A stretch of 64,000 nucleotides of DNA from Enterobacter phage CC31, in the sequence record NC_014662.1, one strand, 5' to 3'. Positions 36,660 to 37,658 of the stretch are shown here, piece after piece. The notes below the pieces were generated by a model that did not search any database, had not been told where the DNA came from, and saw only the letters and a list, made by a program, of their open reading frames with translations. The stretch's first letter is position 1. Each line of letters starts with the position of its first letter. Made by a program: the position numbers and the translations under genes.

Positions 36660-37001
36660 CTATAACACACTTGACTGATGTTGTAAACGGTTCTTTCTAC
36701 ACATTCTGATGAAGTTTTCAATAGGCTCTTCTGGTCTATTGGCTGGATAGCATTTCTTCCAGTTCCACCCTCCCAGCAAGTCAAAGATTTGGTCAGGAAG
36801 AGAATCCCATGGATGTTCTCTTTCGCGGAGTTGAAGCACAATATCACCGGCTGCTTCTCTAATTCCAGTATCAAGTTTTCCATTACAAATCACGACATCC
36901 ATGAGTACTGCAAGACAACAACTATCATGGCTTCCGTATTTGTTCGGATAGTAGAAATAATGGTCAATAATGTAGCAGCAATTACGGTCTAAACCTTTCA
37001 T
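36660..37001 (-). CDS. hypothetical Cys-rich protein
   Basis: Track ORF trimmed to ATG 37001 (MKGLDRNCCY) with GGAGGAA RBS; hairpin at 37022-37044 between it and tRNA-Gln. Confidence 0.4.
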   Translation of the reverse strand: MKGLDRNCCYIIDHYFYYPNKYGSHDSCCLAVLMDVVICNGKLDTGIREAAGDIVLQLREREHPWDSLPDQIFDLLGGWNWKKCYPANRPEEPIENFIRMCRKNRLQHQSSVL

Positions 37002-37064
37002 AGTGTTCCTCCAGTGATTCTGGGGAAACTTTTCAGTTTCCCCATATATTACCATTAACAGCTG

Positions 37065-37220: not shown

Positions 37221-37340
37221 CTTATCCGGATTCCTGAAGTACAACGGCTGCTTTATGTAGAACTCACCTATTGTGAGGGAACAAAATCACTGGTCCTGGC
37301 ATTAATTATGGACCACCATCTTCAGGAACTGCCTCGTATT
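37221..37340 (-). ncRNA. structured spacer in tRNA cluster, candidate small stable RNA
   Basis: About 120 nt without ORF or tRNA; long-range complement ttcctgaagt/acttcaggaa and internal hairpin GGTCC...GGACC; T4 carries two small RNAs of unknown function in its tRNA cluster. Confidence 0.3.
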
Positions 37341-37416
37341 TGGCGGACCTAACGGGATTCGAACCCGTGACTCTCACGTGACAGGCGAGTATTTTCACCG
37401 CTGAAACTATAGGTCC
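37341..37416 (-). tRNA. tRNA-Asp (anticodon GUC)
   Basis: 76 nt with CCA; acceptor GGACCTA/TAGGTCC; anticodon arm CTCGC-CTGTCAC-GTGAG; T arm ACGGGTTCGAATCCCGT. Confidence 0.7.
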
Positions 37417-37658
37417 AAATTATCTTTCGTGATTATGTGAATCCCTCAGGTTTTCCGGAAAACCGAATAGGCGACAAAAGCTCTCATATACCCGTGCACA
37501 GATATAATCTTTGTTAACTAGTGTCTGAATCAGTATAATCCGAAAGATAACTTTCGGCGCCGTATTTAATTTGAGATATGTAGTTATCGTTGAGGGAACT
37601 CATATTCAGGGATTAACATGCCGACGACTTTGTCAGAACGTCTTCCAACTTCTATATT
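37417..37658 (-). ncRNA. structured spacer in tRNA cluster, candidate small stable RNA(s)
   Basis: About 240 nt without ORF or canonical T-loop; hairpins GGTTTTCC/GGAAAACC and CCGAAAG-N4-CTTTCGG. Confidence 0.3.

Follow-up and report, generated by a model that had tools for sequence, protein, structure and literature searches.

Three conserved RNA modules, one of them a diverged homologue of T4 rnaD, in the tRNA cluster of Enterobacter phage CC31

The two gaps of the tRNA cluster

The window analysed here is a stretch of 64,000 nucleotides (nt) from Enterobacter phage CC31 (NC_014662.1), and the subject of the analysis is the two gaps in its transfer RNA (tRNA) cluster. The source is a T4-type myovirus of the Karamvirus group, and the tRNA region was matched best by Enterobacter phage vB_ECC_CW742 (95.7% identity; hereafter CW742). 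Eight tRNAs were placed on the minus strand by using ARAGORN and the Rfam tRNA model (Table 1), leaving 242 nt between tRNA-Asn and tRNA-Asp (37658-37417) and 120 nt between tRNA-Asp and tRNA(CAU) (37340-37221). A preliminary description, made from the sequence alone, had put the gaps at about 240 and 120 nt and had taken them as two candidate small stable RNAs, analogous to but diverged from the two small RNAs of the T4 tRNA cluster and processed from the same precursor. Structured and conserved RNA units were found in both gaps, which supports this interpretation, and their number is three: the 242-nt gap holds two separate modules, B1 and B2, and the 120-nt gap is occupied by a module A. 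For B1 the relation to T4 is stronger than analogy, as it is homologous to T4 rnaD; none of the three is a homologue of T4 rnaC, and A and B2 are families of their own.

Neither gap was matched by the tRNA model (RF00005), by ARAGORN or by any other family of Rfam release 15, which was searched at the gathering score and at E<=10. T4 rnaC and rnaD, used as the control, have no Rfam family either, so the silence of Rfam on B1 carries no weight and the negatives for the gaps mean uncurated families, nothing more. The gaps had been described as free of open reading frames (ORFs) and of a canonical T-loop, and this held: their ORFs are at most 39 amino acids (aa) long and none of them is conserved in position or frame among the homologues, and a tRNA-like T arm (GGTTCGAATCC) beside an acceptor-like 5'/3' stem was absent from both gaps on sequence inspection. 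When each gap was folded as a single sequence and compared with shuffles, the 120-nt gap reached z=-1.85 and the 242-nt gap z=-2.68 (0 of 200 shuffles folded as well as the latter). These z-scores are modest and weak alone; the comparative evidence is decisive.

The division of the 242-nt gap was given by sensitive blastn against phage genomes, in which the first ~117 nt of the gap were found alone in Jiaodavirus, Moonvirus and Vequintavirinae, and the last ~135 nt alone in Marfavirus and Kagamiyamavirus (EcS1), there without an adjacent blastn match to B1. The 120-nt gap was matched in Karamvirus, Winklervirus and related phages at 73-99% identity. In the window the modules sit 0-7 nt from the neighbouring tRNAs, and in the relatives the spacers between module and tRNA are mostly 0-6 nt, as determined by profile searches of all fetched loci together with their tRNA maps. 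The order is Asn-B1-B2-Asp-A-tRNA(CAU) in Karamvirus, Asn-B1-B2-A-tRNA(CAU) in Marfa and two uncultured contigs, Lys-B2-Asn-A-tRNA(CAU) in EcS1 and Virsaitis27, Arg-rnaD-rnaC in T4 and Met-rnaD in Vequintavirinae. The neighbours thus vary between genera, B1 following Asn, Arg or Met and B2 following B1 or Lys. A, B1 and B2 are conserved units in tRNA-like slots, the neighbours of which have been swapped independently between genera.

Table 1. Positions of the tRNAs, the three modules and their helices in the window
Feature	Position	Strand	Remarks
tRNA-Tyr	38110-38026	minus	Rfam tRNA model only, 39.1 bits
tRNA-Ile, tRNA-Lys, tRNA-Glu	between Tyr and Asn	minus	ARAGORN and Rfam
tRNA-Asn (GUU)	37743-37659	minus	85 nt; ARAGORN and Rfam; upstream boundary of B1
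B1	37658-~37555	minus	diverged homologue of T4 rnaD (species 2 RNA); begins right after the CCA of tRNA-Asn
B1 P1	37632-37649	minus	5' hairpin GUUGGAA-GACG-UUCUGAC
B1 core	37557-37628	minus	RNAalifold and pair counts on alignment A4
B1 P2	37628-37622 with 37557-37562	minus	CGUCG pairs with CGGCG
B1 P2b	37615-37612 with 37567-37570	minus	short
B1 internal loop	37611-37606	minus	CCCUGA
B1 P3	37605-37601 with 37576-37580	minus	variable across the family
B1 apical loop	37601-37583	minus	19 nt, GAGUUCCCUCAACGAUAAC
Junction hairpin	37540-37557	minus	alternative hairpin CCGAAAG-UUAU-CUUUCGG at the B1/B2 junction; excludes B2 P1, overlaps the last base of B1 P2
B2	~37552-37417	minus	~135 nt; three-way-junction RNA family, no Rfam match; ends 1 nt before tRNA-Asp
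B2 P1	37418-37433 (3' strand) with 37552-37538	minus	closing helix; 15 counted pairs, ~18 bp, one bulged A
B2 P2	37525-37512 with 37473-37486	minus	7/11 pairs altered on both sides
B2 P3	37506-37499 with 37487-37494	minus	stacked on P2, UGCA loop; 5/8 pairs altered on both sides
B2 P4	37445-37467	minus	hairpin GGTTTTCC/GGAAAACC; nine pairs, 3 altered on both sides
tRNA-Asp (GUC)	37416-37341	minus	ARAGORN and Rfam; separates B2 from A
A	37340-37221	minus	120 nt; RNA family without Rfam match; just 5' of tRNA(CAU)
A P1	37228-37243 (3' strand) with 37333-37317	minus	closing helix; 17 counted pairs, 7/17 altered on both sides
A P2	37314-37310 with 37292-37296	minus	conserved loop AUAAUUAAUGCC (AUAAKUAAUGCC in alignment A3)
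A P3	37277-37273 with 37263-37267	minus	variable hairpin; GUUCCC just before
tRNA(CAU)	37220-37144	minus	ARAGORN and Rfam; downstream neighbour of A
tRNA-Gln	37137-37064	minus	ARAGORN and Rfam

Module B1 as a member of the rnaD family

The species 1 and 2 RNAs of T4 have been known since the 1970s. RNAC and RNAD, which come from the T4 tRNA region, are listed with unknown roles (PMC3014915), and both were seen by RNA-seq and validated by northern blotting as late RNAs (PMC9697503). Direct blastn of the gaps against T4 rnaC and rnaD gave only words of 8-10 nt, which are not significant, and T4 rnaD itself matched 735 phage records by blastn, with none from Enterobacter or Klebsiella phages among the matches listed. 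The bridge between T4 rnaD and B1 was provided by a Vequintavirinae copy (Escherichia phage A7_1; alignment A1), which has the 5' hairpin and ...CACAGCAGAAACGGCGCACC in common with T4 and the apical loop GAGUUCCCUCAACGAUAAC in common with the window. A covariance model (CM R1) was then built from 13 T4-type rnaD sequences only (alignment A6), with no Karamvirus sequence included. It matched the window at 37556-37658 on the minus strand over the whole model (positions 1-122 of 122), scoring 30.1 bits with E=1.2e-5 when 168 kb were searched, and it also matched the Karamvirus, Jiaodavirus, Moonvirus, Marfavirus and Vequintavirinae copies. Because of the bridged alignment and of the match of a model built without Karamvirus, B1 is a true homologue (orthologue) of rnaD beyond the reach of blastn. 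The covariance-model and Rfam searches proposed in the preliminary description were thus both run, with no Rfam match in the gaps and with a full-length match of CM R1 to B1.

The positions agree as well. B1 starts at 37658, the next base after tRNA-Asn, and T4 rnaD starts 1 nt after tRNA-Arg. The blocks AAGUCGUCGG, UCCCUG and ACGGCGC are conserved between B1 and T4 rnaD, and the P1 hairpin is present in every member of the family with at least five different stem sequences: ACCGG/CCGGU in T4, GCCGG/CCGGC in locus L060, UCGGG/CCCGA in A7_1, UCAGAA/UUCUGA in Karamvirus and CCAUGA/UCAUGG in locus L201. The core was determined on alignment A4, which contains 20 sequences from T4-type, Karamvirus, Jiaodavirus, Moonvirus and Vequintavirinae phages and in which the UCCCUG block and the strands of P2 are invariant. 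In this alignment 95.6% of the cells are paired and 10 of the 15 pairs are altered on both sides, compared with 25-47% paired in the slid controls. The universals of the family are the P2 helix, AAG(U) before P2 and the internal-loop UCCCUG, and nothing else. The apical loop is near-invariant in Karamvirus, Jiaodavirus and Vequintavirinae though unpaired, with one substitution in Moonvirus KM16. A pairing of this loop (UCCCUCA) with B2 (UGAGGGA) was considered and rejected, as it is present in Karamvirus and on inspection is not kept in KP182 or the Marfa group.

The Vequintavirinae copies (locus L006, 1475-1577, Escherichia phage A7_1; locus L239, 875-977, vB_EcoM-LTH01) lie right after tRNA-Met. 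With 85 bits against the T4-type model they are much nearer to T4 than are the Karamvirus copies, and they belong to phages unrelated to the T4-type ones, which implies that rnaD passed horizontally from one phage family to another. A scan of genome contigs for bacterial rnaD homologues gave 17 matches, all of them in unrelated and mostly high-GC genomes, and none was confirmed by nhmmer. In a T4-like phage evolved with E. coli ECOR34, the sole mutation common to all lines falls in rnaD (PMC12685909), a hint at a host-dependent role.

Modules A and B2 and the rest of the cluster

Homologues of module A were found in Karamvirus, Winklervirus, Jiaodavirus, Kagamiyamavirus, Marfavirus and uncultured contigs, and in every locus examined the module lies 0-33 nt upstream of tRNA(CAU). 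In its alignment (A3, 15 sequences) 31 pairs were counted, with 97.4% of the cells paired and 15 of the 31 pairs altered on both sides (slid controls, 30-47% paired). The strands of the closing helix P1 are UUCCUGAAG/CUUCAGGAA in the window; most relatives have UUCUUGAAG/CUUCAAGAA, and Marfa, L079 and L080 have UCUAAAGAG/CUCUUUAGA. About 67 G-U cells and about 5 A-C cells were tallied in A3; G-U pairs would turn into mismatches on the opposite strand, and the structure therefore works on the minus-strand transcript only, which is the strand of the tRNAs.

Module B2 (alignment A5, 10 sequences) has 43 pairs, of which 21 are altered on both sides, with 95.3% of the cells paired and 33-51% paired in the slid controls. 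Six of the 15 pairs of its closing helix P1 are altered on both sides, for example from UUAUC/GAUAA to UUUAC/GUAAA and UUCGC/GCGAA. The hairpin GGTTTTCC/GGAAAACC, which had been pointed out before, is present (plus-strand positions 37449-37464) and is the P4 of B2, kept by compensatory changes (GGUUUU/AAAACC in the window, AGCUUU/AAGGCU or AAAGCU in relatives). The long-range complementary segments of the preliminary description are the closing helices of A and B2.

The second hairpin named there, CCGAAAG/CTTTCGG, is likewise present (plus-strand positions 37540-37557) and competes with the covariation-backed B2 P1. Its GAAAG and CUUUC cores are invariant in A5, so the comparison cannot decide its role, and the only compensatory change seen is in the outer pair in KP182. 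Both the RNAalifold consensus and the single-sequence minimum free energy (MFE) structure pick B2 P1 over it. The 3' half of the junction hairpin is also the 5' strand of the far longer B2 P1, and the hairpin can therefore be no more than an alternative or short-lived pairing, which may form during transcription.

For each of the three modules, none of 500 shuffles reached the observed values in either the cells paired or the covariation score. Structural covariation in homologous regions, the absence of which had been named as evidence against the two candidates, was thus found for all three modules, and each module has its own fold maintained by compensatory substitutions. The unpaired columns are as conserved as the paired ones (near-invariant unpaired columns: A, 29 of 62; B2, 24 of 58; B1, 17 of 70), which argues for tertiary contacts or a specific ligand over passive spacer hairpins.

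B2 was also considered as a diverged rnaC and rejected, the alignment being unconvincing and cross-matches between the profiles being absent. Sister phages have bona fide homologues of rnaC alongside B2 (in CW742, for instance, the homologue occupies the Trp-Gly spacer), and because of this co-occurrence B2 cannot be rnaC in diverged form. With an nhmmer profile made from T4 and CW742 rnaC, homologues were found in many loci, none in the window and never at the coordinates of A or B2. No sequence or profile similarity of A or B2 to T4 rnaC or rnaD was detected, and CM R1 had no match on any A module at E<=1. A and rnaD have in common GUUCCC together with a variable hairpin. In one uncultured T4-type contig (locus L024, 3797-3908) the variable hairpin of rnaD is replaced by UCCUCCCACAG-UUUUA-CUGUGUUCU, which is nearly the P3 region of module A (GUUCCCACAG-UAUU-CUGUGUUCU), with an A-like CCCACAG...CUGUGUUCU hairpin. 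This variant suggests either sub-module exchange or a common ancestry of the A and rnaD families.

Several further features of the cluster were observed. In the Gln-His spacer of sister phages (96-118 nt; loci L001, 1394-1498, L002, L004, L027 and L073-L076), an apparent fifth module was found; it has a closing stem of ~14 bp (AUCAAUAUUYAYUY ... RRGUGAAUAUUGAU) with compensatory changes between genera and is not in the window. The Asp-Asn spacer of Kosakonia phage Kc304 (locus L076, 1272-1423, 152 nt) has a perfect tRNA 3' half at its end (GGGTTCGAATCCC T arm, acceptor strand and CCA), with no ARAGORN call and no annotated tRNA, and could be a very long or interrupted tRNA-like gene.

Among the tRNAs of the window, tRNA-Asn (GUU) is unusual for a tRNA-Asn in its variable arm, which is long and type II-like, and in its D stem of 3 bp; the long form (82-85 nt) is kept in related phages and is sometimes annotated as 'tRNA-Asx'. 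The tRNA-Tyr was missed by ARAGORN and is annotated as 'tRNA-Pseudo-GTA' in Cronobacter phage Pet-CM3-4, and is therefore an atypical tRNA. Features resembling those of an initiator were noted by eye in tRNA(CAU) (U1 x C72 mismatch atop the acceptor stem, G2:C71 and C3:G70; anticodon stem closed by three consecutive G:C pairs, GGG/CCC), and it is a possible initiator tRNA of the phage, as opposed to an elongator Met tRNA or an Ile tRNA that reads AUA.

The cluster of the window ends at tRNA-Gln and is followed, in the region 36660-37063, by a non-terminator hairpin (~37020-37045) and then a coding sequence (CDS) of phrog_29231. In CW742 (locus L001, 91-1501) it continues with His, a homing endonuclease gene, Ser, Trp, the rnaC homologue, Gly, Pro and Phe. 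This distal half, rnaC included, is missing from the window, and the end of the cluster at tRNA-Gln is thus the reason for the absence of rnaC. The two flanking CDS were scanned with Pfam and PHROG and matched families of unknown function only.

Interpretation and comparison with known systems

Most probably, the two spacers encode three non-coding RNA genes whose transcripts would be made together with the tRNAs, be excised by the enzymes of tRNA processing and accumulate as stable RNAs. A, B1 and B2 would be transcribed within the polycistronic tRNA precursor, in keeping with the finding that no promoter- or terminator-like sites were seen on the minus strand inside the cluster. RNase P, in cleaving at the 5' end of the tRNA that follows, would generate the 3' ends of B2 and A. 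The 5' ends of B1 and A would come from cleavage of the RNase E type within the conserved AAUA that immediately follows the CCA of the upstream tRNA. B1 and B2 would be separated either by cleavage of the short GAAAG linker or through the action of RNase III on the ~18-bp stem of B2. The closed terminal helices are expected to protect the products against degradation, yielding stable RNAs of ~105, ~135 and ~120 nt (B1, B2 and A, respectively), as with T4 species 2. These might have a function in trans, for which the likeliest route would be the binding of a protein of the host or the phage via invariant single-stranded motifs, with GUUCCC (A and B1), AAGU and UCCCUG (B1), AAUGCC (A), and AAGAUU and UAUGAGAG (B2) as candidates, and the RNAs might confer a host-dependent fitness benefit and not an essential function.

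Several points weigh against this explanation. Stable accumulation of A, B1 and B2 would be expected by analogy with T4 rnaD alone, and the processing enzymes and cut sites are assigned from position. The covariation controls leave some phylogenetic signal, and several of the changes are clade-wide (e.g. Marfa/L079/L080). The constant place of module A beside tRNA(CAU) would suit a cis leader no less than a trans role, and the 3' strand of B2, which is within 1 nt of tRNA-Asp, could hinder RNase P instead of helping it. A complementary-target search of the window was at chance level and no partner protein or RNA was identified: sites complementary to GUUCCCUSA numbered 27 vs 20.4 +/- 4.6 at one mismatch, and exact copies of this motif lie only within A and B1. 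In the literature searched, nothing on function was found beyond 'function unknown', and no published description of the A or B2 families was found.

The main rival is a cis role, in which the modules are parts of the tRNA precursor which space, order or time the cleavage by RNase P, RNase E and RNase III and are then degraded, A being for instance a structured 5' leader of tRNA(CAU). It is favoured by the closing helix of every module, the Gln-His one included, which brings together its own ends and those of the flanking tRNAs, by the constant place of A upstream of tRNA(CAU), and by the competition of the junction hairpin with B2 P1, which resembles a folding switch during transcription. However, B1 and B2 swap their tRNA neighbours between genera, in T4 the homologue of B1 is known to accumulate in the form of a discrete RNA (PMC9697503), and the long near-invariant unpaired blocks would be needless for a passive processing scaffold. 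A cis role is considered unlikely for the modules as a whole and is most plausible for A, which is never found apart from tRNA(CAU).

It is very improbable that the modules are RNA anti-defence decoys with B1 as a Racr-like mimic of a CRISPR repeat. The hosts of these phages are Enterobacterales, which commonly carry type I-E systems. The enterobacterial type I-E repeat, read from the E. coli K-12 genome as GAGUUCCC(CGCGCCAGCGGG)GAUAAACCG, is similar in its two flanks to the B1 loop GAGUUCCC-UCAAC-GAUAAC, the first 8 nt being identical and followed by GAUAAC in the loop vs GAUAAAC in the repeat; the loop is near-invariant although unpaired, and GUUCCC with a hairpin recurs in A and T4 rnaD. 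However, the repeat hairpin is absent in B1 and variable in A and T4 rnaD, and Racr activity requires the stem-loop of the repeat, to which Cas6 binds (PMC10651486). T4-type rnaD is without the second half of the motif, the Rfam search of the gaps at E<=10, which would cover any CRISPR direct-repeat model in the library, gave no match, and the likeness was noticed after the fact. Membership of B1 among the Racrs was rejected, as only the flanks match (GAGUUCCC ... GAUAAC, 8 + 6 nt) and the 12-nt hairpin core is absent.

Conservation caused by small proteins or by DNA signals (promoters or homing-endonuclease sites) is highly improbable. In many records a 'hypothetical protein' CDS is annotated over B1/B2 and rnaD (e.g. 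L001, 1885-2043; L005, 1375-1608; L238, 865-1029; CW742 XPA09352.1; CPT_Marfa_147 of Marfa), two sigma-70-like matches lie on the plus strand of the 242-nt gap, and homing endonuclease genes are frequent in these tRNA clusters. However, the longest ORFs of the homologues vary in strand, frame, position and length (6-34 aa), the promoter-like count is under the shuffled expectation (4 vs 6.0), and the paired columns co-vary with G-U tolerated on one strand only. These CDS are almost certainly spurious because the ORFs are not conserved among the homologues, and the 'hypothetical proteins' are probably mis-annotated RNA genes.

Decay from tRNA genes is extremely improbable and is already contradicted: the size and position of the modules are tRNA-like, T4 rnaC retains a T arm and an acceptor-like stem and ARAGORN calls a 96-nt 'tRNA' in the rnaC homologue of Pet-CM3-4, but the tRNA model (E<=10) and ARAGORN are silent in both gaps, the covariation-backed folds are not cloverleaves, and sequence and structure are under purifying selection across genera.

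The rnaD family extends past the T4-type phages reachable by blastn to Karamvirus, Jiaodavirus, Moonvirus and even Vequintavirinae, and its consensus structure has a tiny invariant core of the P2 helix, AAGU and UCCCUG. A and B2 add at least two more RNA families of the same lifestyle with very strong covariation, which may have been overlooked because T4 lacks both. The modules behave as independent, shufflable and horizontally transferable genes and not as spacers, and in public records they are widely entered as 'hypothetical proteins' or carry no annotation. Such small RNAs within T4-type tRNA clusters are of a known kind; new are the diverged member of rnaD and two families for which neither an Rfam entry nor a published description was found. 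A wider proposal, which is quite improbable, regards the T4-type tRNA arrays as a mobile platform that is shared by decoy RNAs acting in trans, of at least five families (those of rnaC, rnaD/B1, A, B2 and the Gln-His module), which would titrate host defence or tRNA/RNA-processing proteins, with B1 and A presenting GUUCCC and the B1 loop imitating the flanks of the type I-E repeat. Were it true, 'species 1 and 2', RNAs known for 50 years, would turn out to serve in anti-defence.

Four known systems are comparable. The RNA anti-CRISPRs (Racrs), solitary CRISPR-repeat mimics in phages (PMC10651486), are likewise small non-coding phage RNAs and have the repeat-flank match in common with B1, which differs from them in having no Cas6-binding stem-loop. 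T4 rnaC (species 1 RNA, 139 nt) is a stable RNA of ~140 nt within a tRNA cluster, and B2 is similar to it in size and, in this phage, in its slot right after rnaD; T4 rnaC has a tRNA-like T arm (CCGGGTTCGAATCCCGG) and an acceptor-like stem, whereas A and B2 are without both. The tRNA genes of the cluster occupy the same gene-like slots in a polycistronic array, belong to a similar size class, are shuffled in position between genera and presumably obtain their ends from the same processing enzymes; unlike them, the modules have no cloverleaf, T-loop or match to the tRNA covariance model, and their folds consist of a long closing helix enclosing two or three internal hairpins. From T4 rnaD (119 nt; NC_000866, 71053-71171, minus strand), B1 differs in P3, which is a long variable hairpin in T4 and is short with a near-invariant 19-nt loop in B1, in the joining regions (GUU/AGC in T4 vs AAU/AUU in B1, with the helix kept), in the 3' tail (CACC(A) vs CCG) and in the downstream neighbour (rnaC vs B2). 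The two are alike in strand, in the slot directly 3' of a tRNA of the cluster, and in the helices P1, P2, P2b and P3.

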